Virus record (IMG/VR): IMGVR_UViG_3300028030_000010
Span: 12,441 to 76,440 of that record
DNA: 64,000 bases
Strand: one strand, 5' to 3'
Source of the DNA: a virus
The number at the start of each line of letters is the position of its first letter. Position 1 is the first letter of the stretch. A program made the position numbers and the translations under genes. Of the stretch, positions 5,329 through 43,644 are shown in pieces. Under the pieces are notes generated by a model. That model did no database searches. It was not told where the DNA came from and worked only from the letters and a program-made list of their open reading frames with translations.

Positions 5329-5970
5329 TTACTCATAAGAATTTATAGCTTCTGCGTATTGAGATATATGGTTGTCTATTTCTTTCTTGATAGAATAAAA
5401 TTTTGTTTGTTTAAAACCATATTTTTTAAACAGTTGCTCTTTTGATAGTTGTTTTAAATACATGTCTTTAGCTATATTTCTTTTTGTAGGGTCTGGTATG
5501 CTATCTATAATTTCTTTAGGTGTAATTGAAATATTTTTTGCTTGAAGATATTCATCTGTTTCAAATTGAGCTTTTGCAACTCCTCCATATAATTGCAATA
5601 AATTTTTAGCTTTATTTTCTGTAATATTCATTTTTTTTGCTAGCCAGGTAGGATTAGGTAATCCACCATATGTGTCTTTATAGTCATCTATAATTTTTTT
5701 AGCTTTATACATTAAAAGTTGTTGATTTTCTGGCACATAAACTGGTTGATTTTTGTAAAATTCTCTACTCAATTGTTGCAGTTGCGAACTTAAGTATGTT
5801 TTAAGATTACCGTAACCAGGATTCCAGTTTCTTAAAGCTTTTCTAATTATTGCCTCAGCTTTTGCTCTTAACACATATTCGTTTTGATTTTGTTTAAATT
5901 TATTTACAAAATATTCTAATTGTTCGTTAGCAATTTTATTTTTTTCAGGGTCTGTAGTAAACTCAATCAT
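5329..5970 (-). CDS. Sigma70-family RNA polymerase sigma factor (phage)
   Basis: Region 2-like KALRNWNPGYGNLKTYL, region 3-like YGGLPNPTWLAKKMNIT, region 4 HTH-like LSKEQLFKKYGFKQTKFYSI. Start moved from 6012 to the ATG at 5970, which has an AAGGA RBS. Confidence 0.75.
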   Translation of the reverse strand: MIEFTTDPEKNKIANEQLEYFVNKFKQNQNEYVLRAKAEAIIRKALRNWNPGYGNLKTYLSSQLQQLSREFYKNQPVYVPENQQLLMYKAKKIIDDYKDTYGGLPNPTWLAKKMNITENKAKNLLQLYGGVAKAQFETDEYLQAKNISITPKEIIDSIPDPTKRNIAKDMYLKQLSKEQLFKKYGFKQTKFYSIKKEIDNHISQYAEAINSYE

Positions 5971-6577
5971 TACAGTGTCCTTTAAATTGAGGTAAATCAT
6001 AAATATTATCAATAGGAGAAGTTATTTTTCCTAAATCTATTATTTCATATTCATACGCAGGAAGCTTTCCACAATCTGTAACTATTGGTGCTCCACCAGC
6101 AACATCAACAACATAAACAGGCGGTTCACACAATCTTCCACAATCAAACACATAACCAACAAAGCCAGTGATAGAGCCTAAATCATCTAAAGATGTATCT
6201 ATTTTTGTGTAATGTCTTAATCCAGCATATTCAGTTTTTACTTTAAAAAAATCTATTTCAATATTTTCTCCTGTAGCTGTAGAACCTAAATGTATAAACA
6301 TATAAAAATATGGTAATTCTTCATATGAAGTTAAAGGAAGCAACATTGTTTCTTCTGGCGTTAAATAAATAGAAATAATTCCTGGCTTACTTAAATCTGG
6401 CTCTATTTTTTTTATCAAATACGATTCTTCATCGGGAGTGTTTCTATCTTTTTTAAACACCACATAACAATCATCATATTTCGTTAAATCCACAGGTTCT
6501 TCTACACCATATTCATTTGTTTTGGAAACAAAAAGTTCTTTGTAGTATGAGTTTGTTATCCTTATTTTTTCAGCCAT
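5963..6577 (-). CDS. BppU-like baseplate or tail-fibre adaptor with C-terminal D-[LC]-G-x-[IL] repeats
   Basis: PVDLTKYD...VFKK...GIISIYLTPEET pattern; start moved from 6631 to 6577 (AAAAGGA RBS). Confidence 0.5.
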   Translation of the reverse strand: MAEKIRITNSYYKELFVSKTNEYGVEEPVDLTKYDDCYVVFKKDRNTPDEESYLIKKIEPDLSKPGIISIYLTPEETMLLPLTSYEELPYFYMFIHLGSTATGENIEIDFFKVKTEYAGLRHYTKIDTSLDDLGSITGFVGYVFDCGRLCEPPVYVVDVAGGAPIVTDCGKLPAYEYEIIDLGKITSPIDNIYDLPQFKGHCND

Positions 6578-6586
6578 ATTTTTTAC

Positions 6587-6620
6587 AATCCTTTTTGTTA
6601 TAATTATAGCAAAAAGGATT
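6587..6620. promoter_or_regulatory. Palindromic bidirectional promoter and RBS element
   Basis: AATCCTTTTTGTTATAATTATAGCAAAAAGGATT is a 34-bp near-perfect inverted repeat containing TGnTATAAT and AAAAGGA on both strands. Confidence 0.7.
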
Positions 6621-6623
6621 AAC

Positions 6624-7193: not shown

Positions 7194-7240
7194 TTTGATA
7201 TAATTAAAAAGTTTAAAAAATCAACAAAAAAGGAAAAGAG

Positions 7241-8164: not shown

Positions 8165-8165
8165 A

Positions 8166-8606: not shown

Positions 8607-8614
8607 GGATAAAG

Positions 8615-11901: not shown

Positions 11902-12317
11902 CATATATAGACTTTCATAACCTAAATCACATAAAACCAATGGCCATTTTTAAAGCCTTACTTGATTTGTCAAATTTTAGACAAATTGCTAATACAAAAT
12001 GCAAAGTGTATAAATACATTGCATTATCCTTTATATTACTATTTAAAAAAGATATCTTTTTTACAAAGGAAAAAAGTGATGAGGTTAATATAAATCTGCA
12101 AGAGTTGTTAAAATCGCTAAAAAGCAATCGCAATATTAGCAGAATAGTTTCTGAAATAAAAAAAACAAAAGAATGTGTTTTTCTTCCTGAATTAGTTGAT
12201 CTCGTAGATCAAGACGATTGGTTGTCGTTGTTGCATATTTTAAAATCAGCAAACAAGTTAGATTGCGTAAAAGATGCATTGGATTATTTAAAAAGCAATT
12301 TTAAGGACTACGAATGA
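11898..12317 (+). CDS. Hypothetical protein
   Basis: ATGA start/stop overlap. Confidence 0.65.
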   Translation: MTYIDFHNLNHIKPMAIFKALLDLSNFRQIANTKCKVYKYIALSFILLFKKDIFFTKEKSDEVNINLQELLKSLKSNRNISRIVSEIKKTKECVFLPELVDLVDQDDWLSLLHILKSANKLDCVKDALDYLKSNFKDYE

Positions 12318-12754
12318 AAATAGAAATAGTTTCTCTTGATAAATATGTTTTTAATGATTCTGTAAAACTTTTGCAAAGATTTTATAAAGAATTTAAAGGT
12401 GAGCTTATACATAGGATAGAAGCAGAAGAGATTTTAAAAAATCCAAACAACCAAACATATGTTTTATTAGTAGAAAATGAAGTAAGAGGATTATATGTTT
12501 TTCAACCATTCAATGAAGTGTATATAGTTAAAGCATTTATTTTACACCCATTGGTGAGAAGAACAAAAACTGGATATAGACTTTGGAAACATATGAAAGA
12601 GAAATTAAGCAAAAAACCTGCTATAATAGGAATTATTAGAAACAATAACCTTATTAAATCTATAATCAAAAAAAGAGGCCATTACATTGGAAGCGGTCTA
12701 GACAATGAGGGGCACGCATTAGATTTTTACAACTTATCTTTTAAAGGAATGTAA
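12314..12754 (+). CDS. GNAT-family acetyltransferase-like protein
   Basis: YVLLVENEVRGL...AFILHPLVRRTKTGYRLW resembles GNAT motif A; TAATG-coupled to the RNAP gene. Confidence 0.6.
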   Translation: MKIEIVSLDKYVFNDSVKLLQRFYKEFKGELIHRIEAEEILKNPNNQTYVLLVENEVRGLYVFQPFNEVYIVKAFILHPLVRRTKTGYRLWKHMKEKLSKKPAIIGIIRNNNLIKSIIKKRGHYIGSGLDNEGHALDFYNLSFKGM

Positions 12755-14520
12755 TGCAAGGAACAGCTGGAGTAATTTTATTAAATTCATTAATGCCAAA
12801 AGATATCCAATTCGACCCTAAAAAACCAATAACAAAAAAAATATACACTCAAAAACTGTCGGAGTTTGCTTCAAAATACCCTGAACTCTACAAAGAAAGA
12901 ATCCATGAAATTACAGCTTTGGCAGAAAAGATGGCATTTTATTTAGGAGCAAATGTTGGTACAAAAGACTTAAAAATAGCTGAAAAAGAAGTTGAAAAAC
13001 ATATAAAGGAAATTGAGAAATCATTTAACAAAGCAAAATCTGTAAAAGAAAAAAAGAAAATTCTAATGAAAGCTTTTAATGAAGCTCAAGAAACTATAAA
13101 AAAGATGGAAGATCCTAACAATGAAATGCTTTTACAAATCAAATCTTCCGCAAGAGGTAAACCAGCTCAATTTGCAAGAATGTCTTGGGCACCTTTTTAT
13201 GCAGTAGACATGGATCAAACCCCAAAGCCTATTTTGATTAAAAACAATTTCGTTAAAGGTTTAAATCCTCAAGAATATTTTGCTGTTGCAGCACAAGGAA
13301 GATTCTCAGCCGTTCAAACAGCAAATGCAACTTCAGAACCTGGAGAGTTTGGAAAAGTATTAGTAGCAAACACAGATGACCAGGTCATCACAATGAAAGA
13401 TTGTGGCACAAAAAATGGAATTTGCATGGATCCTCAAGACCATCATATAGTTGGTAGATTTGAAGCTGGAACCAATAAACTAATTGATGAAGAGTATTGG
13501 AAAAAACTTAAAAATGATAAAAACATTAAATGTGTAAAAGTTAGAAGCCCTATAACATGTGAAGCACCAAGAGGAATATGTGCGATGTGTTATGGACTAA
13601 AGCCTGACGGTAGACTTCCATCTATAGGAGAGGAAGTAGGTATAGTAGCTGCACAAAGCATTGGCGAACCTTTAACTCAGATGGTTTTAAGCACTAAACA
13701 TAGCGTAGGAGCAAAAGAAGAAGATCCTCATAAATTGCAAGGCATGGAAGGTTTTAAAATAGTGGTTAATTCTCCTGATAGATTTAAACAAAAAGCCCCA
13801 GTAGCACCTAGATCTGGAATCGTTACCAAAATAGAAGCATCACCTCAAGGTGGTTATCTGATTTATATAGGTGACGCCAAGAAACCTGTACACGTAGATG
13901 CTGGTAAGAAGATTTTGGTTAAAAAGGGGGATTATGTATACAAAGGGCAACAATTATCAGAAGGAGTCGCATCGGTAAAAGATGTACTACAAACTAGAGG
14001 TCTTGGTGCTGCACGTAAACATGAAGCCGATTTATTACATGAAACATTTTTAAATTCTACAGGTAGAGACTTGAATAAAAAACATTTTGAAGTTATTGCT
14101 AGAGGACATTTATCTTTAGGTAAAGATGAATTAGGAGATATAGCTGATGTAAATGCTGCACTAAAAAACTACCCAAGCATAAAAATGAAAAAGATGGTTT
14201 CTCCAGAATTAGCTAACGGAAAATATTATTTAGCAGAAAGTGTAGATGTGTTTTTAAAAGGAACTCCAATTGATGATTTTGTAATAAAAACCTTACAAAT
14301 GCACAATATACACCAAATATATGTCACAGAACAAAAGCCTCCTGTAAAACCTATTTACAAAACATTAGTAATGCGCCCTAACTTTAACAGAAATCTATTT
14401 GCAAAACTTAACTATAGGTATCTACAAAAAGCTATGTTAGATGAAGTAAAAAGAGGCAAAGGATTTAAAACAGAAGATATTGTTTCTGGAAGAGAAAAAC
14501 ATACCGCCCATAAATTATAG
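12754..14520 (+). CDS. rpoC: RNA polymerase beta' subunit, C-terminal half (bridge helix, Zn site, trigger loop)
   Basis: SSARGKPAQ, NFVKGLNPQEYF, TANATSEPG, DCGT, VRSPITC...CAMCYG, GEEVGIVAAQSIGEPLTQ...KH, KHFEVIAR. Confidence 0.95.
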   Translation: MQGTAGVILLNSLMPKDIQFDPKKPITKKIYTQKLSEFASKYPELYKERIHEITALAEKMAFYLGANVGTKDLKIAEKEVEKHIKEIEKSFNKAKSVKEKKKILMKAFNEAQETIKKMEDPNNEMLLQIKSSARGKPAQFARMSWAPFYAVDMDQTPKPILIKNNFVKGLNPQEYFAVAAQGRFSAVQTANATSEPGEFGKVLVANTDDQVITMKDCGTKNGICMDPQDHHIVGRFEAGTNKLIDEEYWKKLKNDKNIKCVKVRSPITCEAPRGICAMCYGLKPDGRLPSIGEEVGIVAAQSIGEPLTQMVLSTKHSVGAKEEDPHKLQGMEGFKIVVNSPDRFKQKAPVAPRSGIVTKIEASPQGGYLIYIGDAKKPVHVDAGKKILVKKGDYVYKGQQLSEGVASVKDVLQTRGLGAARKHEADLLHETFLNSTGRDLNKKHFEVIARGHLSLGKDELGDIADVNAALKNYPSIKMKKMVSPELANGKYYLAESVDVFLKGTPIDDFVIKTLQMHNIHQIYVTEQKPPVKPIYKTLVMRPNFNRNLFAKLNYRYLQKAMLDEVKRGKGFKTEDIVSGREKHTAHKL

Positions 14521-14547
14521 TATAATTCCTAAAAAAAGGATTGAAAA

Positions 14548-15246
14548 ATGGCGGTTTTTTTCTCTAACATCCCACTCACAAAAGAAACTCCTCAACCAAC
14601 TATATTAGAATTGTTTGTTGCAAACGATAGTGCTTTCTCTATATTAGATAGAACTAATGAAGTTTATGAAAACAAATCCAAATTGATTAGAGATTTTGAG
14701 TTTGTTAAAAAGCCTTTCAATGAATATCAAATTCATTTGATACCTCCTGTAAAATCTGATGGATTGATTTTAGGACTTTTTATAGCAGAAGGGTTTGATT
14801 TTGAAATACAAACACAAAAAGAGCCAATTTTTAAAATTGAAAAAAACAAGTTGGAACTTTCTCTAAAAGAATTTTATGACCCAAATGAAAAAATAAAAAA
14901 AGCAACAATTGGCTTGTTCTTTCCTGGTACTGTAATTAGATATAAAATAAATGGAATACCATATAAAGATATATTAACTGAAAGAGGATGGACTTCTAAA
15001 AGAGAGACTAAATCTGTTAGTGAAGTAGCTAAGAGCTCTAAAAATGAAACCCTAGACGAATTAGAAACAAAAGAAGCGATTAAATATGCTGAAGAGTTAA
15101 TGAAGAAGGGAGAGATTAGTAAAGATTTATTTGAAAGATATAAGATTTTTAGATTAGGGTATGATGAAGGCTCAAAAAATGGTAAAATACTTTTTAATGC
15201 TTTAACAAAAGATGAAGTTAAACTTTTAAAAGAGAAAGGGTTATAA
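14548..15246 (+). CDS. Hypothetical protein
   Basis: TATAAT at 14521-14526 and AAGGA RBS. Confidence 0.7.
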   Translation: MAVFFSNIPLTKETPQPTILELFVANDSAFSILDRTNEVYENKSKLIRDFEFVKKPFNEYQIHLIPPVKSDGLILGLFIAEGFDFEIQTQKEPIFKIEKNKLELSLKEFYDPNEKIKKATIGLFFPGTVIRYKINGIPYKDILTERGWTSKRETKSVSEVAKSSKNETLDELETKEAIKYAEELMKKGEISKDLFERYKIFRLGYDEGSKNGKILFNALTKDEVKLLKEKGL

Positions 15247-17519
15247 TGAAAAGGAAAAAATCTGAACAATTCAAAGAAGCGTTAAACCAAACATTTCTAT
15301 ACAAAAAAGCAGATGATGATGTTAATGCTAATATTGCAGAATTGGTTAATGAAGAGGCTTTTGCTCAGTTGTCAAAAAAATACTCGGATATAATTCCTTA
15401 TATTATCGGGTTTAAAGAAGTTGAAAAAATAGATGATGGTACTTTATTGTCAAGTGCAGTAGTAAGCGATGGAGAGAACAGGTTAATTATTCCGATAATA
15501 TATGCTGGTGGAAAAGTTGATGCCACTTCTTATATTTATAATCCTGATACAGACATAATTTTTGCCTTAACAAAAAAAGTTATCAACTTTCTTTTTAAAA
15601 CTAATAAAGATTTAGGTGTAGCAATTGATGGTCAAAATAATAGCACTTTGGATGCTGGTAATATTAGAAAGCTATTCATTCCTCCTAAAAATTGGTCTCC
15701 AAAGATAGCTAGTAGCAACTTGTTACCATATTTAGTAGAAACTCAACCAATCATTAAAGGGTTATTGTTAGAAAAAATAGCAACTGATGAAACATTTTCT
15801 CAAATATTTAAAATTTTCTACCATGATATGGCTGAAGAGCTAGAAAAAGAAGCACAACAATTTAAAGCGTTTATAGAAACTCCTGAAATAGTTGCTTCTT
15901 CATTTGAAGAAGTAAGACATAATAACAATGTATTAAACAAAGAAGCAGCTGCTCAGGAATATGCAGAAAATGGAATATACATTCAACATGGAGAAAAATT
16001 ACCTTCTAAAAGCTTAATTAAAGTTGCCAGTGGAGATGCTCCTATCAAACAAGCATTAAATAGTGATGATATAGAAATTGTAGGAAAAAAAAGTGGATGT
16101 TTCAAAGTTGTCAACTCTTCTAATTTAACAGTTGATTTTGTGTTAAGTCTCCCTTTATTTAAGGGAGGGCCTAAAAACTATATTTTAGACTTCTTAGGTT
16201 CAGAATATTATAATGATTATTTTGATTTCATAGGAAAAGAAGATGAAAATTGTTTTGCTGCAAAAACAAACCTAATGGAAGTGTCACCACAAAATCTATT
16301 ATCGCATTTACCAAATGTAGTAATTGTTTTAATGCAAAATCAAACAAGATTTTTAGGTTTCATTCCTGTTATTAAGAAAAACCTAACTGAAAACAATATC
16401 CAGTTAATTTATAGCAACTCTAATACAATCGTAATAAATGTTTCTTACGGAAGAATAAAAAGAATAGTTGTTGAAAAAAATTCTGACAAAAATCCTATGG
16501 AAGTTGGTAATGTGCTTATAGTAGGAGATAAGAATATAGGTCTATATCTGACAGATAAAGACCCAAGAAAATATATGACATACGATGAATATGTTGCAAG
16601 AACTAAATACAACACTAATTCAAGCACTGAGATAATTAAAGTTGCATATGACGGTTCTCATTATGTTTTCAACAATAGATTATTAACACAAAAAGAATTA
16701 GCATCTTTCTTGCTTAAAGAAGGATTTGATAAATACAGCATATATTCACTTTTAAAAGAAGCTAAATCAAATGGAGAAGCAGAAGCTAAAGCGATTTCTG
16801 CAAAAATAGACACATTAGCTCAATTAATTGCAACAACTCTTGGGGAGCTTAAAAAGTTAGAAGGTAAGGTTGAAGCACTTACTCAAGGAACTCAGTTTGT
16901 TGAAAACAATGATTTGTATCAGTATACAGAGCCTATTGCGAGCGAAGACAATTACAATGAAAGCGAAACAACTCAAGAATCTCCTCAATTAGACGAACAA
17001 ACAGCAGCAGCTATACAAATGGATGCCATGAATGCACCTCAACAAGATGTTCCAACATTTTCTATGTATGATGAGGGGAAACAAATAGAAGACATTCCTG
17101 AAGAACCAGGTATAGAATATCCTCAAGCTCAAACTGAAGAAGATGCGAGCCAAGAAAATCAAGGATTAGTAAATGGTATGAATCCTTTGGCTAACCCTGA
17201 TGTTATTCAAATGTTAGTGTCTTTAAAAGATACTCCAATAATGGATGTAAGCATCTTAACATTGCTTTTAGCTAACAAAAATGTATCGTTAGTTATTCAG
17301 GATCAATTAGCAAATATTTTAAATGGTATAAATGGTTTAGGTAAAATAACTTTCAATGTTCAACTAAATTACACATCTTTAAGTGAGTCAATGGGAGATA
17401 ACAGATACAAATCTGTGTTAAACAATCTGAAAAGTCTATTTAAAAATATGACAGATTTATATGTTGACTTAGTTCAAAAAAGCGAACAATTTAAAACTCA
17501 GGAAGAAGATGAAGAATAA
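15246..17519 (+). CDS. Large protein with about eight LxKxA-type motifs and an acidic Q/E/P linker; candidate head-internal or core protein
   Basis: LYKKAD, LEKIAT, LEKEAQ, LNKEAA, LIKVAS, IIKVAY, LLKEAK. Confidence 0.5.
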   Translation: MKRKKSEQFKEALNQTFLYKKADDDVNANIAELVNEEAFAQLSKKYSDIIPYIIGFKEVEKIDDGTLLSSAVVSDGENRLIIPIIYAGGKVDATSYIYNPDTDIIFALTKKVINFLFKTNKDLGVAIDGQNNSTLDAGNIRKLFIPPKNWSPKIASSNLLPYLVETQPIIKGLLLEKIATDETFSQIFKIFYHDMAEELEKEAQQFKAFIETPEIVASSFEEVRHNNNVLNKEAAAQEYAENGIYIQHGEKLPSKSLIKVASGDAPIKQALNSDDIEIVGKKSGCFKVVNSSNLTVDFVLSLPLFKGGPKNYILDFLGSEYYNDYFDFIGKEDENCFAAKTNLMEVSPQNLLSHLPNVVIVLMQNQTRFLGFIPVIKKNLTENNIQLIYSNSNTIVINVSYGRIKRIVVEKNSDKNPMEVGNVLIVGDKNIGLYLTDKDPRKYMTYDEYVARTKYNTNSSTEIIKVAYDGSHYVFNNRLLTQKELASFLLKEGFDKYSIYSLLKEAKSNGEAEAKAISAKIDTLAQLIATTLGELKKLEGKVEALTQGTQFVENNDLYQYTEPIASEDNYNESETTQESPQLDEQTAAAIQMDAMNAPQQDVPTFSMYDEGKQIEDIPEEPGIEYPQAQTEEDASQENQGLVNGMNPLANPDVIQMLVSLKDTPIMDVSILTLLLANKNVSLVIQDQLANILNGINGLGKITFNVQLNYTSLSESMGDNRYKSVLNNLKSLFKNMTDLYVDLVQKSEQFKTQEEDEE

Positions 17520-18291
17520 CTTCATCTCTTTTTTTGACCCCTATGGAAATATTGTTATTAAACCTTCTGATAAAGAAGATAAAAAAATATGCACTCTTTT
17601 TAGTAAAATATTAAAAGGTGAGCATAAAGCATATTCTAAGTTATCAGATTTACATAAAGAAGTAATTGATTATAGAATTAATTTTTTTGCAAAAGAAGCA
17701 ATAGAGAGTTTTCTTTTTTGTGAAGATATTTCTTTATCAGAAATTGCTGAAATCTTGGAAACACAGCAAGATGTTATAGAAGAATATGGATATTGGTTTT
17801 GCAATGTGGGAAAAATAAAAACATACTTTCAAAAAAAAATATGGATAGAAACACAATTAAAAGAAATAAAAGAAAAATTAGAGCTTACTGGCTATAGAGA
17901 TGAAATTCTATTAAATGAACTAAAATCGATTTTATTTAAACGATGGGCTTTGTTGTTAGGTAAAGAATTTGTGATTTGGAAGTTTGGATTAAAAAAAATA
18001 ACTGTCTCTCCCTCTAATTTTTTAGAAACAATAGCTAAAGAAGCTTTTTTCCACTACAAAGAAATATCTTTATCAGAGAAAGATTTAGAGCACAATGAAT
18101 ATGCAAAACTCATAAATAGTTTAGTAAAAACTATAAAAGAAATCAATAGTGTTATGTCACAATCGGCTAATAATGATGATATTGTGACTTCAATCAAAGA
18201 AGCATTAGAAGTTGTATTAGTTGAAGAAGAACCTAAAAAGCAAATTCCACAATTAGATGGTGATATTGTTTGCAATTCAAAAATTAATTAA
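17509..18291 (+). CDS. Hypothetical protein with a possible HTH
   Basis: ISLSEIAEILETQQDVIEEY; function unresolved. Confidence 0.55.
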   Translation: MKNNFISFFDPYGNIVIKPSDKEDKKICTLFSKILKGEHKAYSKLSDLHKEVIDYRINFFAKEAIESFLFCEDISLSEIAEILETQQDVIEEYGYWFCNVGKIKTYFQKKIWIETQLKEIKEKLELTGYRDEILLNELKSILFKRWALLLGKEFVIWKFGLKKITVSPSNFLETIAKEAFFHYKEISLSEKDLEHNEYAKLINSLVKTIKEINSVMSQSANNDDIVTSIKEALEVVLVEEEPKKQIPQLDGDIVCNSKIN

Positions 18292-20829: not shown

Positions 20830-22965
20830 ATGTCATTAAGAATAAGACCTTACGTAAGTGTAGCTGAGTCAATTGCTCAAACAGCTCCTAACTTACTTCA
20901 AGTTACAATGCCAACTATTATAGTTGGACCTGCGGTGGATGAAAAAACTGGTTTTGACGCAGAGTTGGATTTTACTGTTATAAACAACGCTAGAATTTCT
21001 GATTTGCTTGCATTAGATTCTACTGGTAAAGTATTTAAAATTGCTGGTATTAGACCTGGTGCTACTATAGACGTGTCTAGCTTAGAGTTTGGTGCTAAAG
21101 AATTAAGTAGCGTTGTTGATTTTGCTGGGAAAGAACTTCATTTTCATGTTAAATCTTCTACAGAAAAACACATTCTTGTATTAGAAAGTGGAGATAATTA
21201 TGTTACAGAGCAAGATCTATTAGATAAAGGTGTTTTAATTGGGGATGATTTAACTATAAATCCTCCAACAGAAGATGATGCGCCATTTACATCTAAAATT
21301 AGAGACTTTGGTAGAGATGATGATGGAAATCTATTAGTGTATCTATGGGATGAAGTTCCTTATGATGTGGATGAGACCACTTCATTAACTGCAAGCATTA
21401 CAAAATATTTTAATAATGTAGCTTTAACTAAATCAGGCTTCACAATAGAAAATGTGGTAGGTTTTAGTGATAGCGTACTAATTAAAGGACCTGGTAGTTT
21501 TTCATTTGATTATTTTGTGTATCAGCCTACAGATGTAACTCCAGACTTTTCAAATATAAAAGTTTCAATTACTCCTTTAGTATTACCTAACACAAATCAA
21601 ATAAAAATAACAGCATCAGCAAAAGATGGAAGATTATTTAACTGGTTTGTTGCAAATAGAACAGATATTGCAAATCAAATCATTGATGTAAATTATAATA
21701 ACTATCAAACTATTATAGGTAAAGGAACAATTAAAAACAAATTAGGTAAAGCTCTTGAGCTAATAGCTAATGAAATTCCAGGATTTAATGTGAAAATTTT
21801 TGTAGTAGAAAATGATAGCGATGACGCTTATACAAAAGCTCTAAATATACTTTCAACATCTACTAAAGCTTATCAAGTTAGTTGCTTAAGTGATTCTGAA
21901 AATGTATTAAACGCTTTAATTGGTGCAATCAAAAAAGGTGAACAACCTGAAATTAGTGCATACAAAATGGGAATCTTTGCTCCAAGATTGCCTTTAATTT
22001 CTAAAAAACTAACACTAACTGATGCAACTATTACTGACAACGGAGATGGTACATTTACTATTGAAACTCCTACAGGTGGATTTAGTGTAAGTGGAATTAG
22101 AGAAGGTGATGTGATAATTGGTTCTGAAGATTTAAAAATCGCAGATGAAGAATATTACAATACAGTAGGAGAACCGTATACTGCTAAAGCAGTTGCAACT
22201 GTAACTACAGTAATCACTGATAAAAAACTTATAGTTACTCCTATTATATCTAACGCTAATGTTGCTGAGGCTTTAAGCGGTCAAAATATAGTATTTATTT
22301 CTATTAACAACAAAGATGTTGTTGCAGATAGAATTAAAAAATTAGCTGAAAGTATTAATAATATGCATATGGTGCTTGTTTTTCCTGATAAATTCATTAT
22401 AGATGAAGAATTAGTTCCTGGTTATTATGTTGCTAGCCTTCTAGCTGCTATAATGGGACATTTGCCTCCTCAACAAGGTTTAAGCAATCTATCTGTCAGA
22501 ACTGTTGATAGAGTAGTTGGGTCTTCTTTCTATTATACTGACACAGAATTAGATGAAATTGCGGCAAGTGGGGTTACTGTGTTAGCTCAATCAAGTTATG
22601 ACACTCCTCCATTTATAATTAGACAACTTACAACAAACATGAATTCTCTGGAAGAAATGGAGATTAATAAAGTTAGATGTTTAGATTATGCTGCTTTATC
22701 TATTAAAAATGTTGTAGATGGTTATGTAGGAAAAAGAAACGTTACTCAAAGAAACGTTAGTGATATAGCAGAGACAATTAAAGCTACTTTAAACAATATT
22801 ATTAGAACAACAGCAAATGACTTATTAGGAAGCGTGATTACTAGTTATAAAATAAACAATATTGCAATTCCTGAGGATGAGCCTGATGCTATCACAGGAG
22901 ATATAGAGGTGTATACACCAACATCTCTAAATGCAATTAGATTGTTTGTTAAATCAAAAAGTTAA
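20830..22965 (+). CDS. Contractile tail sheath protein
   Basis: N-terminal RPYVSVAE...IIVGPA; C-terminal PGYYVAS...PPQQGLSN...LDEIAASGV...IRQLTT...EINKVRCLDY...PTSLNAI; 711 aa. Confidence 0.88.
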   Translation: MSLRIRPYVSVAESIAQTAPNLLQVTMPTIIVGPAVDEKTGFDAELDFTVINNARISDLLALDSTGKVFKIAGIRPGATIDVSSLEFGAKELSSVVDFAGKELHFHVKSSTEKHILVLESGDNYVTEQDLLDKGVLIGDDLTINPPTEDDAPFTSKIRDFGRDDDGNLLVYLWDEVPYDVDETTSLTASITKYFNNVALTKSGFTIENVVGFSDSVLIKGPGSFSFDYFVYQPTDVTPDFSNIKVSITPLVLPNTNQIKITASAKDGRLFNWFVANRTDIANQIIDVNYNNYQTIIGKGTIKNKLGKALELIANEIPGFNVKIFVVENDSDDAYTKALNILSTSTKAYQVSCLSDSENVLNALIGAIKKGEQPEISAYKMGIFAPRLPLISKKLTLTDATITDNGDGTFTIETPTGGFSVSGIREGDVIIGSEDLKIADEEYYNTVGEPYTAKAVATVTTVITDKKLIVTPIISNANVAEALSGQNIVFISINNKDVVADRIKKLAESINNMHMVLVFPDKFIIDEELVPGYYVASLLAAIMGHLPPQQGLSNLSVRTVDRVVGSSFYYTDTELDEIAASGVTVLAQSSYDTPPFIIRQLTTNMNSLEEMEINKVRCLDYAALSIKNVVDGYVGKRNVTQRNVSDIAETIKATLNNIIRTTANDLLGSVITSYKINNIAIPEDEPDAITGDIEVYTPTSLNAIRLFVKSKS

Positions 22966-34468: not shown

Positions 34469-34471
34469 TTA

Positions 34472-36091: not shown

Positions 36092-37111
36092 TCACTTAAT
36101 TTTGTTAGCTTTAACTTTTAATTCAAAAATTGTACCTTGATTGTTTGTTTTTATAAGCCTTATATTCCCTCCAGAAGTTTTTAAGATAGATAAATTAATA
36201 TATAAACCATTTCCTCTAATATCAAGCACCTTTGTTTTTGTGGAAATGTTAGGAATGAAAATTTTCGGTATAAACTCTTTCGGAATACCTGTTCCATTAT
36301 CAGAAATAAACATATACACATATGGGTCGCTATATCTAATAAATTTAGCTTCTATCAAGGTTGAATTGGCTTCTAAAGAATTTTTTATATGATTAATTAA
36401 TATGTTTAAAAAGTCAGCGTTCGATATGCAATTTTTACAGTCTAAGTTGTATTCTTTAAACTTAACATCTATGTTCCATTTAAAATCTTTATGGGAAATT
36501 GTCATTATTTTAAACGCAGTCTCTATAACATCATAGAGTGTTTTGTTGCCATTTGAATACTTAATCGATTTAAAACCTTTCATTTTGTTTAAAATATTGC
36601 TTATTTGTTCTATTGATGATTCCACATAAGTAAAATCTTCTCTAATATCATATAATCTTCTTAAACATGGGTTTTTATCAGGATCTGGACATTCTACTCG
36701 TCTCTGTATATCTTTTATCATTAAATCTATAAAATTCATAATTTTATACATTTTGAAAGTAATAACTTCTAAGGGAGTGCTTAGTTCGTGAGAAATGTTT
36801 TCTGTTATATTCATCAATGATTTATTTGCAGAAATGGAACTAAGATTTAAAACATTTAATAAATATTTTTTTCTATAATTAATATAATCGATTAACAAAT
36901 TACTCACAAAAACAATTAGAAAAACAATTACTACTATGTAAAAATATGAATTGGAAGCCGACTTCCAGTCATAATGCATAAAAAAATCTAATTTTAAATG
37001 TTTGTTTTGTTGTAAAATATCATTAGATACAAGAATTAAAAATACAATTGCAGAAAAAAACACTGAAACAAATAATTTTAAAATAGCATCTTTAATTATT
37101 TCTTTAATCAT
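36092..37111 (-). CDS. Membrane sensor histidine kinase (HisKA + HATPase_c)
   Basis: Two TM helices; H-box ISHELSTPL, N-box INHIKNSLEA, G1 ISDNGTGIP, F-box IFIPNISTK, G2 GNGLYI, then GTIFEL. Confidence 0.93.
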   Translation of the reverse strand: MIKEIIKDAILKLFVSVFFSAIVFLILVSNDILQQNKHLKLDFFMHYDWKSASNSYFYIVVIVFLIVFVSNLLIDYINYRKKYLLNVLNLSSISANKSLMNITENISHELSTPLEVITFKMYKIMNFIDLMIKDIQRRVECPDPDKNPCLRRLYDIREDFTYVESSIEQISNILNKMKGFKSIKYSNGNKTLYDVIETAFKIMTISHKDFKWNIDVKFKEYNLDCKNCISNADFLNILINHIKNSLEANSTLIEAKFIRYSDPYVYMFISDNGTGIPKEFIPKIFIPNISTKTKVLDIRGNGLYINLSILKTSGGNIRLIKTNNQGTIFELKVKANKIK

Positions 37112-37824
37112 TGCTCTTCTTTCTTATTGCTTAAAATATTAGAAATAATTTCTATTAACTGAGAAGGCGGATATTGATTTTTAAAAATTGTATACTTAAA
37201 AATATCCTCTCCTGTTATTTCTTTAAAAGATTCAATTATTTTTTTTGAACTATAAACATAAGGATTTAAGTTGTTTCCTGTGTAGAAGAAAAATTTTAAG
37301 TCAGGGTTATGTTTGTATATTTCCTTAAACACCATAATGCCTTCATATTTAACATTTCCTTTTTCTGGATGAAACATTACTCCGCCATAAGTTATATCTA
37401 TAACAGCATAATCTATCTTTATTTTTCCAAAGCGTTTTTCTAAAATTTTAAAAATAAATCCCGCATAACTAGAATATATTTTTAACACATTTATTTTGTT
37501 TTCTAACCCATGAATTTCAATTATATCTTCAATAAGAGAAATTAAGCCTATATTATCATCTATAATAAGTAAAATTGGTTTATCATTTTTAAGCATTTTT
37601 TCATACTCTGCTATTATTTTATCTACTTCCTTTTTTATAGAATCTGGAAGTTGTCTAATGATGTCATCTTCTGACATTTTTTCAAAAATTTTTTCACAAG
37701 AAGCAATTTCTTTTTTGGAAATATTTTTTATATCCTCATCGTAAGTCGAACGACAAATTTGTTGCAAAGAACTCCACTTGAGTAGTTTTTTTAAAAAGTT
37801 TCTTATTTTTTCTAAAACATCCAT
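37108..37824 (-). CDS. Response-regulator receiver protein with an N-terminal extension and no output domain
   Basis: LLIIDDN, AVIDITY (phosphoacceptor Asp), FYTG, IFKN; ATGA-coupled to the kinase. Confidence 0.75.
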   Translation of the reverse strand: MDVLEKIRNFLKKLLKWSSLQQICRSTYDEDIKNISKKEIASCEKIFEKMSEDDIIRQLPDSIKKEVDKIIAEYEKMLKNDKPILLIIDDNIGLISLIEDIIEIHGLENKINVLKIYSSYAGFIFKILEKRFGKIKIDYAVIDITYGGVMFHPEKGNVKYEGIMVFKEIYKHNPDLKFFFYTGNNLNPYVYSSKKIIESFKEITGEDIFKYTIFKNQYPPSQLIEIISNILSNKKEEQ

Positions 37825-38724: not shown

Positions 38725-38738
38725 TTATTGTTCCTTTT

Positions 38739-38754
38739 TGGTAAGATTATATCA
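38739..38754. promoter_or_regulatory. Divergent holin/endolysin promoter region
   Basis: Minus-strand TGATATAAT at 38754-38746; weaker plus-strand TGGTAAGAT; AAGGA RBS on both sides. Confidence 0.5.
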
Positions 38755-38774
38755 AAAAAACAAAAGGACAAACA

Positions 38775-39344
38775 ATGAATGAAAAATTTTTAAATGCGTA
38801 TAAAAACTTAATTGGTGCTGAAGGCGGTTATGTGGATAGACCTGAAGATGCAGGAGGAGAAACTTATAAAGGTATATCTAGAAAGTTTCATCCTGATTGG
38901 GAAGGCTGGACAATTATAGATAAATACAAAGATAAACCAGATTTTAAAAGCAAAATAAAAAAAGATAAAGAATTGGAAAAACTGGTGCAAAAATTTTATT
39001 ATGAAAATTACTGGGAAAAATTTAATGGCGACAAACTTCCTTATTTAATCGCTGAAGAACTGCTAGAACAAAGCGTAGTTTTAGGGACATGGAAAACAGC
39101 TGGAAAAAATCTTCAGAAAGCTCTTAACTTATTAAATTTAAACAATAAATTATTCTCAGATCTAATTGAAGATGGAATTGTAGGGCCTAAAACATTAGCA
39201 GCAGTAAATAAAGTAAATCAAAGAAGATTGTTGACTGTATTAAATGGATTAGAATTTTGTAGGTTTAAAGAAAGCATGGAAAAAAGACCTATAAATGAAA
39301 TATTTAGGGGATGGTTTGATAGGGTAAACTTTATTCTAAAATAA
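38775..39344 (+). CDS. Endolysin, glycoside hydrolase family 108 with peptidoglycan-binding domain
   Basis: EGGYVD..D.GGETYKGIS; LQKALN...DGIVGPKTL; FRGWFDRV. Confidence 0.93.
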   Translation: MNEKFLNAYKNLIGAEGGYVDRPEDAGGETYKGISRKFHPDWEGWTIIDKYKDKPDFKSKIKKDKELEKLVQKFYYENYWEKFNGDKLPYLIAEELLEQSVVLGTWKTAGKNLQKALNLLNLNNKLFSDLIEDGIVGPKTLAAVNKVNQRRLLTVLNGLEFCRFKESMEKRPINEIFRGWFDRVNFILK

Positions 39345-42300
39345 CAGGGTCGTTATAATTTAACTTCCCTTCTCTTATTAGTTTTTTTATTTCAGCTATA
39401 CTGTGAACTTTTATAGGTTTTTTCTTTGATGGAATAGAAGCTTTATACGCCCCTATAACAGCATCCTGATCTGTTATCATTAGCAAGTCTTTATGAGTAA
39501 GCGTTCCTTGATCAGTGAACAATTGCTTAGAAGCAAGCATTTTTTCTTTTACATCTTTTATACCTTCAGGAGTTACTGGTACATGCACAGCAATTTGGTC
39601 ACCATCATAGTCAGCTGCCAAAGCCCTTTCTACCATTGGAGGTAATGATATAGAGTGACCAGGAACAAATTTTGGATATGCACCAATAAGGTTATGTTTC
39701 CATAAAGATGGAGCCCTGTTGTAGACTACAGGTATTTCTTTACCTAATCTGTGTAAAAGCTTGATTACTTTTTCATCCTTATTTTTGATCATTTCTTTTA
39801 TTTGCAATTGAGTGTATCCCATTTTAGCCATTTCTCTACTAATGTGAGGCTCATACATTTTAAGCCCCATTTCTTCTGGTAACTCTATTTCATCTAATTT
39901 TAAATCCCCTCTTGAGGGTGTAATTACAGCCCTTCCTGACATAAATTGATTTTTTCTAAGCAACTGTTCTTGAACAAATGAGTCTTTCGGTCTATTTCCT
40001 CCTAAAACATCTAGTATCCCTTTTACTTGCTTATTTGCAATTGCTGGATTGTTACTAGGATACAATCCATACATAGCGCCTATAGCATGTTGCAGAGAAA
40101 GTTTTAGATCATTTATTGTTTTTTTAGATAATTTGTTTTGTTTTGCTTCTTTTAAAGTGTTGTTTAAATTAATTATTTCTTGATAATGTAGATTTAGGTC
40201 TGAAACTCCATATTTACCGGTATGGTCTTTGATAATTGGCCTATAAACAGGCGGAATTACTGGAACTGTTTTTAATACAGCTACATCTTTTAGAGATAAG
40301 TTGTTGTTTTTTAGTTTTTCTAAAAACTTAATGATTTTTAAATTTCTATCTTTTAGTTGCTCATTTGATGTTTTTTTATTTTCATCTTTCAGTTTTTTTA
40401 TTTCTTTATTTATATCTATAGCAGATAATTTCTTAATTATACTATCTACACCATCTTCAACCATCATTTCTTTTAATTTTTTTTCAGGGATACCTAACAA
40501 GAAAGCAATTTCATATGAATAAATTGGGTTAATTAATGGTTCGTTTAATTTTATATGAGCATACCTATTACCTAATTCTCCGAAAATAGAAGGATCAAAA
40601 AGCCCTCCTTTTCTAGGAGAACCATCAGTTGCGTTTATAGTTTCTGCACTTTTAACTTCTTTAGGCCCCTTTTTGATAATATCCTTATCTGTTGCGGGAA
40701 CCAGATTGAAGCTATTTGGGTCATCTTCAACATTTACATTTAGTTGACTTAATAGAGCTTTAAATTTTTCATAGGCAAAATTTTCAGCCGGTTTAGGTAG
40801 TGGTTGTCCTTTTCTAAAGGCTTCAAACCAAGCATCATTTTTTTGGCCTTTTATTTTTCTAGCCTCTCTTAGTAAATCTTTCGCATTATGTGCTAATAAC
40901 GCATTTATTTCCATATTTGAAAAAGATGAAGCCGAAGTTTTGCCACCTTTTGCTGGTTGTTCATTAATATTAACCCTATCAGTAGCAGTAGCACTCATTC
41001 CAGATTCAGAATCTTTAAAAAGCTTATAAGTGTATGGTTCTCCTACAAAAACTTTTTGAGGAAAAGGTTTGCCTGTTTCTGGATTGATTAGCGTTTCATA
41101 TTGTTCAACCCCATGTTTCTTAGCTTCTTCCTCTGCAAATTTTAAATTATCAGTTAAAGAATATTGATCTAGCACATAAGATTTGTCAGTTTTTTTTCCT
41201 ACTTTACCTAGAGTTGCTTCTATTAATTGCCCAGGATTGATCCTTGAAATAACCCCAGCAGATGTAACTATAATATGTACTGGTTCACCTTTCTCATTTT
41301 TTGGCATTTTATCATCAGGTAAAATCAAAGAAATAGAACCTTTGTTACCATATCTCCCTGATAACTTGTCACCTATTTGGGCCTTAGATTTTGTTTTTAC
41401 AAAAACCCTAATATTGTTCCCTGATTTGTTTACAGACACCACTTTACCATCATGATGATGAGTCCATGTTTCTAATTTCAATTTGTATGGTTTAAATAAA
41501 GTTTTTTCTAAAGAAGTTATAGGTTTATCTTTATTTACGACTAATTTAATCACTAAAGGTTCATTAAATTTAACGGTTGCGCCTTTTTTTATAACTCCGT
41601 GCTCATCATACTTTGATAAATCATATTTAGATAAAGTAAGAGGAAATAAAGCCTTAGCCTTTTTTAAATCTAATACATCATCTCTATCTATATGAATTTC
41701 TTCTTTATACATATGAAGAGAAGTTAAGTTTTTGGCTGCAGTTTCAGATACAATGATTGCATCATTTCTGTTGCCAGGCATCGACATCCAAGCTGTTCTT
41801 AAATGCACTCCATTTGCAAAATAACCATCTTTAGCATAGTTACTTTCTGCTATCACTTCTCCTTTTTTTACTCTATCTCCTACCTTAACCTTAGGCTCCA
41901 TAGATATGTATGTTTTTCTAGCTAATGGAAGGTCTTTTATGTATTTAATTTTATGACCATCTATTTGAATGTAATCATCAGTTATTTTTTCAACTTTACC
42001 AGAAACAGGACTTTTCACAACTTGGTTTGTTTTTTCTGCTATTTTTTTATAAAAATCTTCATTTTTATCTTTTGTTCTAACAATTGGAGCTTCTCTATGT
42101 TCTAGCGATAAAGCTTGTTGAGCGTGCTTTTGAGCCATTGTAGCTCTCATGCCATCCATTGAATTAATAAGAGGCAATGTTTTTGTTGATGAAGTGTGTA
42201 TATCGCTTGAGCTTTCTATCGCATAATCTACATCTTTTAGAGACTTTACTGTATATTCTTTTTCTCCATCTCTAATTGGAATTCCTTCTTTTTTAGCTCT

Positions 42301-43644
42301 CTCTTTTGATGCAGGATAAGCTACTTTTTTGTTCCACAATTCTTTTATTGTTTTTATTTCTTTTTTTCCTGTTTTTACATTTAAAACTTCTATTGCAGGC
42401 TCTCCATTTTCATCAACATATGCATTATTTGTTACTGCCAATGTAATCCCTGTCTTTGCTCCTTCCGGAGACACAACTGGGTCAATAAAACCTAATTGAG
42501 AAGAATGAATTGCTTTATCATCTTCTGTTAAAGCTCTATCTGTTTCTATTCCACCTTCTCCTAAAGGAGTTAACAATTTTGTTGCCATATGTGTTTGAAT
42601 AGGGTTGTATTCTTCTGGCATTCTGGATATCTTTGAAACAGTTAAAAAACTTTTTAGTGTATCAGTTAAATAATTGTGATTAAATACATCATTTAACGAA
42701 TTAAGTGCTGGATTGTTTAATTTTTGTTTTATTTTAAAAATTTCTTTTACTGAATTTTTTGCAAAATATTCAGGCATAAGATGTATAGCGTTTAACACTT
42801 TTCTATTAGCTAAGTTGTTTTTCTGTTTTAAATCTACTTCTTCTCCTCTGTAAGCTTTCAATATTTGCTTAATGTTTGCGAAAATCAATTCGGGAGTTAA
42901 TTTGCTTGTCTCAACTCCAAAGTTTCTTTTGTTAACATCTGGGTCCAATTCCATATGATCAAAAATATACTTTATCTGTTCTGTTAATGGCTTTTGTTTT
43001 ATATCATTTGGCAAAGAGTATGATTTTTTTATAAATTTTTCTAAATCAGTTGGATTTGTTTTATTTATATTGATTTCATATAGCTTTTTCCCTAATTTTC
43101 TTTTAATTTCTTCATCAGAAACACCTAACGCTTTCAATATGCTAACAACAGACACATTAGAATTTCCTATGTTAAAATAAATTACACCAGTATCTGGGTT
43201 AAGTGTTATTTTGAATTGTCTGTTTCCTATTGGATTAACTATTGTAACAATTTCTCCATTTTTTCTTTCGAACAAATAAGTACCAGGTTTTAATCTTTGC
43301 TGATTAGGTATAGCATACGAATTCCCATCTATTATGAAAGTTTCTTTAGGTGAGAATTTAGGAACTTTAGCTATCAAAATGTTTTTTTTACATTCTATTT
43401 TTTTATTATCCTTTTTTCTAATTAAACAAACATCTCCTCTAATTTCATTAAATAAACTTTTGCCTTTTAAAATAGCATTCTTAACATCTTCTAAGTCCAC
43501 TTCTTTTTGTATTCCTTTAACATTGGAAACTTCTATTTTGTAAAAGTTCCCTTCTATGGGAAAGGTTTTTTCAACTTCCTTAACAACATTATTTAATATG
43601 TGTTTATCAATTTTTTCTGGAGAATCATCTATTTTGTAAAACAT
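39331..43644 (-). CDS. rpoB: RNA polymerase beta subunit fused to the N-terminal (catalytic) half of beta'
   Basis: Beta motifs: GEGGI...IHSSQLGFIDPVVSPEG, DGMRATMAQKH, NDAIIVSE, GDKLSGRYGNKG, SRINPGQ, FSNMEINAL. Beta' motifs: ETIN...GLFDPSIFG, PVIPPVYRP, SDLN, SGRAVI, NRAPSL, AADYDGDQIAVHVP. Confidence 0.96.
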   Translation of the reverse strand: MFYKIDDSPEKIDKHILNNVVKEVEKTFPIEGNFYKIEVSNVKGIQKEVDLEDVKNAILKGKSLFNEIRGDVCLIRKKDNKKIECKKNILIAKVPKFSPKETFIIDGNSYAIPNQQRLKPGTYLFERKNGEIVTIVNPIGNRQFKITLNPDTGVIYFNIGNSNVSVVSILKALGVSDEEIKRKLGKKLYEININKTNPTDLEKFIKKSYSLPNDIKQKPLTEQIKYIFDHMELDPDVNKRNFGVETSKLTPELIFANIKQILKAYRGEEVDLKQKNNLANRKVLNAIHLMPEYFAKNSVKEIFKIKQKLNNPALNSLNDVFNHNYLTDTLKSFLTVSKISRMPEEYNPIQTHMATKLLTPLGEGGIETDRALTEDDKAIHSSQLGFIDPVVSPEGAKTGITLAVTNNAYVDENGEPAIEVLNVKTGKKEIKTIKELWNKKVAYPASKERAKKEGIPIRDGEKEYTVKSLKDVDYAIESSSDIHTSSTKTLPLINSMDGMRATMAQKHAQQALSLEHREAPIVRTKDKNEDFYKKIAEKTNQVVKSPVSGKVEKITDDYIQIDGHKIKYIKDLPLARKTYISMEPKVKVGDRVKKGEVIAESNYAKDGYFANGVHLRTAWMSMPGNRNDAIIVSETAAKNLTSLHMYKEEIHIDRDDVLDLKKAKALFPLTLSKYDLSKYDEHGVIKKGATVKFNEPLVIKLVVNKDKPITSLEKTLFKPYKLKLETWTHHHDGKVVSVNKSGNNIRVFVKTKSKAQIGDKLSGRYGNKGSISLILPDDKMPKNEKGEPVHIIVTSAGVISRINPGQLIEATLGKVGKKTDKSYVLDQYSLTDNLKFAEEEAKKHGVEQYETLINPETGKPFPQKVFVGEPYTYKLFKDSESGMSATATDRVNINEQPAKGGKTSASSFSNMEINALLAHNAKDLLREARKIKGQKNDAWFEAFRKGQPLPKPAENFAYEKFKALLSQLNVNVEDDPNSFNLVPATDKDIIKKGPKEVKSAETINATDGSPRKGGLFDPSIFGELGNRYAHIKLNEPLINPIYSYEIAFLLGIPEKKLKEMMVEDGVDSIIKKLSAIDINKEIKKLKDENKKTSNEQLKDRNLKIIKFLEKLKNNNLSLKDVAVLKTVPVIPPVYRPIIKDHTGKYGVSDLNLHYQEIINLNNTLKEAKQNKLSKKTINDLKLSLQHAIGAMYGLYPSNNPAIANKQVKGILDVLGGNRPKDSFVQEQLLRKNQFMSGRAVITPSRGDLKLDEIELPEEMGLKMYEPHISREMAKMGYTQLQIKEMIKNKDEKVIKLLHRLGKEIPVVYNRAPSLWKHNLIGAYPKFVPGHSISLPPMVERALAADYDGDQIAVHVPVTPEGIKDVKEKMLASKQLFTDQGTLTHKDLLMITDQDAVIGAYKASIPSKKKPIKVHSIAEIKKLIREGKLNYNDPVILE

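Follow-up and report, generated by a model that had tools for sequence, protein, structure and literature searches.

The locus described here raises the question of whether a tailed phage can carry a bacterial-type, multisubunit RNA polymerase of its own in two chains and, if so, how such an enzyme would assemble, choose its promoters and reach the infected cell. It lies in a stretch of 64,000 nucleotides (hereafter the window), bases 12441-76440 of the 76,440-bp IMG/VR contig IMGVR_UViG_3300028030_000010, which is rated about 47% complete. The window has a G+C content of about 29% and is about 40% of a tailed phage genome of about 160 kb. A previous reading made from the letters of the DNA (the sequence-only reading) had proposed a phage-encoded multisubunit RNA polymerase consisting of a fusion of beta with the N-terminal part of beta' (beta::beta'N), a separate C-terminal part of beta' (beta'C) and the phage's own sigma factor. 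Protein domains, alignments and relatives support this core proposal. The three genes are:

39331..43644, minus strand: beta::beta'N fusion gene, 1437 residues in one open reading frame (ORF) (Pfam, PDB matches, alignment)
12754..14520, plus strand: beta'C gene, 588 residues (Pfam Rpb1_5, E 3e-25; PDB beta' matches; alignment)
5329..5970, minus strand: sigma70-family factor, 213 residues (fold search, PHROG, homologue chain)

Mapping of the Rpb1 and Rpb2 domains placed Rpb2_3 (residues 344-410), Rpb2_6 (579-900, E 1e-38), Rpb1_1 (1078-1215) and Rpb1_2 (1287-1367) on the fusion chain, all above their curated cut-offs, and Rpb1_5 on the other chain. In phmmer searches of solved structures, residues 74-968 of the fusion chain corresponded to residues 88-1047 of the 1100 in cyanobacterial beta (E 8e-62), and residues 1061-1412 to about 170-525 of beta'. 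The fusion chain and members of its family were also aligned with MAFFT to Salmonella rpoB and rpoC, whose numbering is shared with E. coli. The alignment divides the chain as follows:

40720..43644, minus strand: beta module, residues 1-975 (MAFFT alignment to Salmonella rpoB; motif positions)
40711..40719, minus strand: three-residue linker PNS, from beta to beta' (alignment)
39334..40710, minus strand: beta'N module, residues 979-1437 (alignment; split position)
39598..39618, minus strand: catalytic loop AADYDGD, residues 1343-1349, equivalent to E. coli NADFDGD 458-464 (alignment)

The beta module contains the fork loop GEGG (362-365), DPVVSPEG and GDKLSGRYGNKG (758-769, the region of E. 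coli K1065), and is without the E. coli inserts SI1 and SI2. It closes with ..NVNVEDD (residue 975); the linker PNS comes next, and the beta' part opens at about E. coli residue 14. The beta'N module retains clamp helices and catalytic barrel, and D1345, D1347 and D1349 of the catalytic loop are invariant in two family alignments. The N-terminal zinc finger of beta' (E. coli C70, C72, C85, C88) is deleted, leaving a 32-residue gap in all aligned family members; the fusion chain has two cysteines, both in beta and none in beta'N. The module stops 88 residues past the catalytic AADYDGD, at about residue 551 of E. coli beta'. Thus Pfam, PDB matches and alignment agree with the earlier claim that the core motifs of beta are passed within about 970 residues and that the chain then runs into beta' beyond the catalytic loop.

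The remainder of beta' is found in the second chain, which begins at about E. coli beta' residue 570. Two of its elements can be placed by alignment:

13399..13590, plus strand: second zinc site, Cys217, Cys269, Cys276 and Cys279, equivalent to E. coli C814, C888, C895 and C898
13663..13701, plus strand: first trigger-loop helix GEPLTQ..STKH, in which His316 corresponds to E. coli H936

No SI3 insert follows the trigger-loop helix, and the G/H regions come next. Pfam Rpb1_5 and the alignment confirm what had been claimed for this gene, namely a separate beta'C with bridge helix, second zinc site and trigger-loop histidine about 25 kb away on the opposite strand. The two chains of the window total 2025 residues. 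Their E-values, together with conservation among relatives, rule out a chance resemblance.

In principle, mis-assembly or a frameshifted pseudogene could account for a layout of this kind, as could two halves that protein trans-splicing joins again, and inteins are indeed common in the family. However, the reading frames contain no stops or frame changes, and the window's contig is syntenic, gene for gene, with a second contig (IMGVR_UViG_3300026382_000002, hereafter G001) of 161,461 bp that has direct terminal repeats and is rated 100% complete. G001 carries only one polymerase set: the fusion gene (13459-17820, plus strand), beta'C (43148-44905, minus) and sigma (51675-52331, plus) are arranged relative to one another, strands included, as they are in the window; its fusion chain is 71% and its beta'C 77% identical to those described here. 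Logan contigs, which another assembler built from the probable source run, tile positions 39000-44000 without differences, and one of 426 nucleotides (40557-40982) crosses the fusion junction, again without differences. Nearly all words sampled from 40200-41400 occur in one run only, a hydrothermal-vent metagenome that is probably the phage's source sample; two further runs gave short, diverged pieces only, and no RNA dataset was among those matching this searched stretch.

The layout is also widespread. A piece of the fusion chain that spans the junction (residues 800-1437) matches 519 protein clusters. All of the best 120 of these 519, drawn from JGI, ENA, NCBI, Logan and Tara assemblies, have beta and beta'N domains in one chain, with 95-100% of the piece covered; all 120 carry PF00562 and PF00623, nearly all carry PF04997, and the chains are mostly of 1400-1480 residues. 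Stand-alone beta'C proteins of 580-610 residues are present in many clusters and are as common as fusion chains. Among cultured phages, the layout occurs in Salmonella phage Arash and in Vibrio phages D69, D148 and D181. The same junction and the same free ends thus recur in hundreds of clusters, independent assemblies and cultured phages, and peptides of both Arash chains have been observed (PMC10585845). Trans-splicing fares no better than mis-assembly, as the end of the first window chain and the start of the second fall within about 6 residues of each other on the uncut chain of a relative (G002, described below), which leaves no room for split-intein halves. Mis-assembly of the fusion is ruled out by the independent contigs and the 519 clusters, and we give next to no credence to an artefact of any of the three kinds. 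The two-chain layout is genuine and common to hundreds of phages.

Several family members carry additional domains in these chains. Inteins and homing-endonuclease domains are frequent in both chains family-wide, as in P0289 and many beta'C homologues of 750-1140 residues, and in P0019, P0053, P0058 and other fusion homologues of about 1800 residues; one example sits in the trigger-loop region of beta'C. In Vibrio phages D148 and D181 the fusion gene is annotated in several pieces together with a homing endonuclease. NUDIX or GNAT domains are attached to the polymerase chains of P0333, P0314 and P0346 (beta'C) and of P0061 and P0114 (fusion), the NUDIX domain at the free N-terminus of beta'C and the GNAT acetyltransferase inside beta::beta'N in some members.

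The third component, the sigma70-like gene at 5329-5970, is supported by its fold, by a PHROG match and by a chain of homologues. An AlphaFold model of the protein (mean predicted local distance difference test score 78.8) was compared with the PDB by Foldseek, and the best 50 fold matches were without exception sigma factors or sigma-containing RNA polymerase complexes; 39 of the 50 had E <= 0.001 (best 1.6e-5), with 216-252 columns aligned, nearly the whole chain. The template modelling scores were low (0.26), as expected for a free-modelled multi-domain chain. Judged from these fold matches, the protein holds sigma2, sigma3 and sigma4 domains in order. It matches the PHROG sigma family phrog_351 (E 2e-4), and a profile of its nine close homologues matches regions 2.2-3.0 of C. 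difficile SigA in register (E 0.04). Over its full length it is homologous to a 206-residue ORF of a long relative, G004 (BLASTP 2.9e-10), and its profile matches gp10 of Arash at 8e-9; the homologues in G003 and G004 and Arash gp10 all pass the Sigma70_r3 cut-off. Sigma70_r3 was found in 15 of 16 long relatives, including all ten of those rated at least 90% complete, and a second gene with sigma region 2 in 8 of the 16. Taken together with the evidence for the window's own gene, this makes a phage-encoded sigma a property of the family. Two further ORFs were considered as extra sigma factors and are not claimed as such: 37108-37824(-), with a weak sigma-profile match (E 0.0014) and no Pfam support, and 17509-18291(+), with an N-terminal region-4-like helix-turn-helix (E 0.05; 0.005 for the G001 orthologue) and no other support.

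Alpha and omega were sought, and neither was detected, in 20 related records, twelve of them IMG/VR contigs rated at least 90% complete and one the complete genome of Arash, with searches that were positive in all 14 control genomes. None of PF01000, PF01193, PF01192 and PF03118 matched at E <= 0.1 in the window's contig, G001, G002 or Arash. PF01000 and PF01192 were likewise absent from all of the 16 further long relatives, in which PF01193 gave a single, sub-threshold match (14 bits). PHROG and Pfam scans of about 45 window ORFs revealed no candidate extra polymerase subunit. The suggestion in the sequence-only reading that alpha is encoded elsewhere in the genome is thus unlikely to hold for a recognisable alpha, since none was found in the complete G001, in Arash or in the 16 long relatives.

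The lack of a detected phage alpha or omega is equally predicted if the phage supplies the catalytic chains and sigma, and the chains need the host's alpha dimer, and perhaps its omega, to assemble. Such borrowing would fit the enzyme's resemblance to bacterial beta and beta', which is much greater than that of phiKZ-type enzymes. However, beta-beta' fusions, both natural and engineered, are known to lessen the need for an alpha scaffold. The hosts of the family are very different (Salmonella, Vibrio, vent bacteria), and with 25-30% identity to bacterial subunits a conserved alpha-docking surface would be surprising. Moreover, phiKZ-type enzymes consist only of pieces derived from beta and beta' plus the phage-specific gp68 (PMC7824862), and an enzyme packaged in the virion, as discussed below, could not depend on host alpha. 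We therefore regard assembly on host alpha as unlikely.

We consider it probable that the window encodes a bacterial-type core of two chains that works with a phage sigma and without alpha or omega, in which the link between beta and beta' serves as scaffold, and which uses the promoters and has the history of fusion and later cutting described below. Under this proposal, the two chains would assemble into an active core without alpha or omega, and the covalent link between beta and beta' would plausibly replace the scaffold of the alpha dimer. The phage sigma would bind the clamp helices, which are kept in beta', and direct the enzyme to phage promoters. That the enzyme is active can be argued from sequence, because the catalytic residues, clamp helices, second zinc site and trigger loop are kept and show purifying conservation across hundreds of lineages. 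E. coli beta positions 513, 516, 526, 529 and 531, the known positions of the rifampicin pocket, are R, E, A, L and T in the phage instead of Q, D, H, R and S. Owing to these substitutions, the phage enzyme is predicted to be insensitive to rifampicin.

Some observations weigh against this proposal. The bridge helix of beta'C is recognisable in the alignment and strongly diverged, and normally conserved residues of beta are changed (E. coli E813 to N, H1237 to S, and RFGEME to SFSNME). The window's sigma reaches no Pfam family at the curated cut-off, its match to Sigma70_r3 (10.6 bits, E 0.04) lying below it. The absence of alpha and omega rests on Pfam models, and a very diverged or non-homologous scaffold may be present among the many unannotated ORFs. 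More generally, the association of the chains, their activity and their independence from alpha are things that we infer for the family as a whole.

The candidate promoters of such an enzyme can be described from the DNA upstream of the operons. In the window and in G001, many operons are preceded, 15-25 nucleotides upstream of their starts, by promoter-like elements with a common pattern: a T-rich tract, TGnTATAAT, about 5 nucleotides, AAAAAGGA, about 7 nucleotides and the start codon. There is no -35 element at these sites, and the leaders are very short. TGNTATAAT occurs 16 times in the window against 7.4 +/- 2.8 times in shuffles, and about ten of the occurrences are correctly placed. G001 has the pattern at the orthologous places as well, one of them immediately before its fusion gene. 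In the window, the sites are:

45040..45048, minus strand: promoter-like extended -10 element TGTTATAAT, 24 nucleotides before the first gene of a co-oriented run (45016..39331) whose last gene is the fusion gene
6603..6611, minus strand: promoter-like extended -10 element TGCTATAAT, before a three-gene minus-strand run that includes the sigma gene
6596-6604, plus strand: divergent TGTTATAAT, partner of the element at 6603..6611
2128-2136 (plus strand), 7196-7204 (plus), 26357-26365 (plus), 38746-38754 (minus), 50709-50717 (plus) and 60598-60606 (minus): further promoter-like sites

These T-rich, TGnTATAAT extended -10 elements would be the likeliest phage promoters. We favour, by a narrow preference, a holoenzyme that travels in the virion and enters the cell along with the DNA, so that early transcription would not depend on the host polymerase. 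The Arash virion preparation had the fusion chain gp206 as its most detected protein (3516 spectra), ahead of the major capsid protein; gp216, the beta'C chain, gave 1210 spectra, and the sigma gp10 was covered to 100% (PMC10585845). Packaging is favoured because of this abundance of both chains and sigma, and also because the fusion gene adjoins the portal gene in both phages. In the window, the genes on this side are:

45051..46874, minus strand: portal homologue (BLASTP versus Arash gp204, 27% identity, 572 residues, E 5e-75)
43645..45016, minus strand: three small ORFs (231, 148 and 73 residues) with no assigned function and with orthologues in G001 (ORF map)

The same data can be read differently. 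The polymerase may be a non-virion enzyme for middle and late genes: the host polymerase would read the TGnTATAAT elements, including those of the polymerase and sigma operons, the phage enzyme made from them would then use promoters of a kind not recognised here, and the Arash signal would be carry-over. The promoter-like elements do fit the general bacterial extended -10 consensus; since they resemble ordinary host sigma70 promoters, the host polymerase may read them instead, which is a point against the packaged holoenzyme. In addition, sigma and polymerase operons that carry these elements need a polymerase that is already in the cell. A second promoter class was looked for by eye in the other half of G001, where the upstream regions are heterogeneous and no clear motif was seen; the heterogeneity counts in favour of this account. 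The Arash proteome provides a further objection to packaging, as the "virion" preparation contained 116 of about 270 proteins, including ribonucleotide reductases (PMC10585845), and the presence of so many obviously non-structural enzymes makes carry-over of abundant infected-cell proteins plausible. On the other hand, it is the Arash fusion chain that is the single most detected protein and its sigma that is fully covered. The fusion gene stands in the head module beside the portal gene in two deeply diverged members, and consensus-like promoters before tail and head operons would be unusual for late genes read by the host. We regard the non-virion enzyme as a real possibility, although not one that we would put first.

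The packaged holoenzyme can be taken further, to a self-sufficient, sigma-dependent, alpha- and omega-free polymerase of about 2000 residues that is packaged and injected with its sigma, the whole programme running on a cascade of sigma factors and the host enzyme never being needed. This stronger version is conceivable, and we put it forward tentatively, with some doubt.

How the two chains arose is best approached through relatives in which beta' is not cut. In IMGVR_UViG_3300034684_000299 (G002), the homologue is one ORF of 2611 residues (L004:9980-17815) that contains, in order, beta, beta'N, a LAGLIDADG-bearing intein directly after NADYDGD, and beta'C. At least 203 confirmed loci of the family are present in IMG/VR. 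Eight of the 16 long contigs (G008-G011, G013, G014, G016 and G018) have beta'C within a frame of 2034-2594 residues, six have beta'C as a gene of its own that follows the fusion gene at a distance of 0.9-1.7 kb, and in the other two (G003, G004) beta'C lies 53-63 kb from the fusion gene. An exhaustive HMMER search with beta'C as the query yielded 818 representatives (E <= 1e-30). Of the 150 best, 115 share one free N-terminal start, and 22 are one-chain enzymes with lengths of 2009-3173 residues. Many one-chain forms carry an intein directly after the catalytic DxDGD. P0303 and P0326, which have beta'N and beta'C without beta, look like fragments of one-chain forms.

When the region homologous to the fusion chain was used for a tree with three bacteria as root, all family members formed a single clade (SH-like approximate likelihood ratio test, SH-aLRT, 100). 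The split forms are one clade within it (99), the dispersed forms, including that of the window, are one subclade (100), and the one-chain forms are the remaining, basal lineages. The simplest history, with its polarity inferred, would be a one-chain fusion first, then one cut between the catalytic barrel and the bridge-helix module, and then dispersal. In the subclade of the window the two genes would have drifted about 25 kb apart onto opposite strands after the cut, and the window's layout would be the most derived of the three in a large family. This order carries its own reservations. The layout tree is rooted with three bacteria only, and a basal trichotomy of three lineages leaves fusion-first as an argument of parsimony, unproven. 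An origin of the cut by a homing endonuclease was considered and rejected, the ORFs between the polymerase genes in "adjacent" genomes having no endonuclease domain. Two such genomes have ferritin-like ORFs between the fusion gene and beta'C, L189:458-1282(+) in G012 and L191:3072-3713(-) in G017.

The trees also bear on whether the chains are a recent capture of host rpoB and rpoC as auxiliary genes rather than a phage lineage. The best matches among solved structures are indeed bacterial beta and beta', with cyanobacterial beta the highest. However, identity to any bacterial subunit is under about 30%. The 21 family members in a beta'N tree group together (SH-aLRT 98) on a long stem (0.95), outside the 15 Bacteria from 8 phyla, which are a clade of their own (99). 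The family does not nest among the sampled host sequences; such nesting had been named beforehand as an outcome that would refute the sequence-only reading. The derived features, that is, deletion of the zinc finger, fusion and cut site, are common to members from Salmonella phages to vent phages. The trees were "quick" searches with a small bacterial sample, and the beta'N tree is without Cyanobacteria, Bacteroidota, Campylobacterota and Actinomycetota; the bacterial scan returned mostly Pseudomonadota, which makes the sample narrow and tempers the argument. The bacterial references included phage-filed records that are bacterial contigs with ordinary rpoB and rpoC. Some "phage" records of Staphylococcus, Enterococcus, Listeria, Salmonella and Acinetobacter are in fact bacterial contigs of this kind. 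We consider a recent host capture highly improbable and retain a phage lineage of polymerases, with fusion preceding the cut, as the preferred history.

The rest of the window says little about the biology of this phage. Besides the polymerase chains and sigma, only five or six of about 45 ORFs scanned match any PHROG or Pfam family, which indicates that the phage is very distant from characterised ones. No tRNA gene was found within the 64-kb window. The start of the fusion gene overlaps the stop of the preceding ORF. None of the three small ORFs upstream of it has a Pfam or PHROG match, and the small ORF directly upstream does not resemble its positional counterpart in Arash. Other features are:

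12314..12754, plus strand: 146-residue ORF ending where beta'C begins, with an orthologue in G001; weak GNAT match (Pfam Acetyltransf_1, E 0.004, below cut-off)
20830-22965: tail sheath (PHROG/Pfam scans)
38775-39344: GH108 lysin (PHROG/Pfam scans)
57163-57846: head protease (PHROG/Pfam scans)

The well-studied multisubunit polymerases of phages, those of phiKZ and AR9, have diverged strongly and work without sigma. The family described here can be aligned residue by residue with bacterial beta and beta'. It has lost the lineage inserts and the first zinc finger as well as alpha and omega, yet a sigma70-type factor has stayed. Provided that the enzyme is active, it would be a compact and genetically tractable model for learning which parts are dispensable in assembly and in sigma-dependent initiation. 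New, too, is that the family also contains one-chain beta-beta' enzymes, that the split forms are a single clade and that the dispersed layout is a subclade within it. The three layouts (one chain; cut, in neighbouring genes; cut, in dispersed genes) are a rare ordered series in one enzyme. Because there are cultured members, Arash on Salmonella Typhimurium ATCC 14028 and the D69 group of Vibrio phages, the predictions can be tested with ordinary methods, and the predicted insensitivity to rifampicin offers a simple test of host-independent transcription. Should the self-sufficient, packaged enzyme prove true, it would be the smallest known sigma-using polymerase of the multisubunit type and a natural experiment on the roles of alpha, omega and the beta' zinc finger.

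A literature search returned no description of this layout (subscription journals lay outside the search). The closest characterised relative is Arash (OQ632216; PMC10585845). Its gp206 (1525 residues) is a beta::beta'N chain with 31% identity to that of the window over 85% of the length, its gp216 (606 residues) is beta'C, and it encodes the sigma gp10, as does the window phage; at least two further sigma-like ORFs are present in Arash. In a joint alignment, the N chains of both phages stop at E. coli residue 551. The two have in common the deletion of the zinc finger and the gene order portal, small ORFs, fusion gene, and they differ in spacing, the polymerase genes being 4.8 kb apart on one strand in Arash and 25 kb apart on opposite strands in the window. 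The Arash paper annotates gp206 as "beta" and mentions neither the fusion nor the split (PMC10585845). The one-chain relatives are homologous along both window chains, but uncut.

The sequence-only reading had also suggested a possible relation to the mReC phages (multisubunit-RNAP-encoding Caudovirales) of Weinheimer and Aylward 2020. Like the window phage, mReC phages are tailed phages whose cellular-type beta and beta' branch outside the cellular clades (PMC7481178). In the same source, beta (920-1563 residues) and beta' (about 900-1370 residues) are encoded by separate, mostly neighbouring genes (PMC7481178, Supplementary Data 2), and no entry in the portion of its table consulted has the signature of 1440 plus 590 residues. 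None of the four records searched (the window's contig, G001, G002 and Arash) has a match to the mReC capsid family PF07068 (Gp23) at E <= 1. All four have above-cut-off matches to the TerL family PF03237 (the contig's own copy lies upstream of the window, at contig positions 7000-7458), and its sharing with mReC carries little weight, as this is a broad family. Membership of mReC as that source defines it is thus not supported. Another phage polymerase layout is that of the cultured marine Cobetia phage Carin-5 (L024:3371-10196), in which sigma, an unsplit beta' (1083 residues) and beta (927 residues) lie side by side; its beta' is similar in sequence to pieces of the AR9-like Yersinia phage YerA41.

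Natural beta-beta' fusions are found in Helicobacter and Wolbachia, where the C-terminus of beta is joined to the N-terminus of beta' in cellular enzymes with a complete beta', alpha and omega. In contrast, the window phage divides its beta' behind the catalytic barrel and has no detected alpha or omega. The gamma/beta' of cyanobacteria and plastids (e.g., PDB 8syi) is the other cellular parallel, with beta' likewise divided between the catalytic barrel and the bridge-helix module. Estimated from aligned ranges, gamma (624 residues) ends at about E. coli 618, compared with the phage cut at about 551/570; unlike in the window phage, beta is unfused in the cyanobacterial enzyme, and alpha and omega are present. 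Phages of the phiKZ/AR9 type also encode beta and beta' pieces, with beta' in an N piece holding the catalytic barrel and a C piece, as here (PMC7598289, PMC7824862). Phages with phiKZ-type enzymes have beta, too, in pieces, encode no sigma and carry far more diverged sequences (PMC7824862), whereas the window phage has beta whole and fused and a sigma present. In AR9-like YerA41, beta' is cut at about E. coli 636 and beta is unfused, compared with a cut at about 551 in the window. It is thus fair to call the architecture of the window enzyme "re-cut", as the sequence-only reading did: the cuts in this phage, in YerA41 and in cyanobacteria all fall between the catalytic barrel and the bridge-helix module, and each at a different site.

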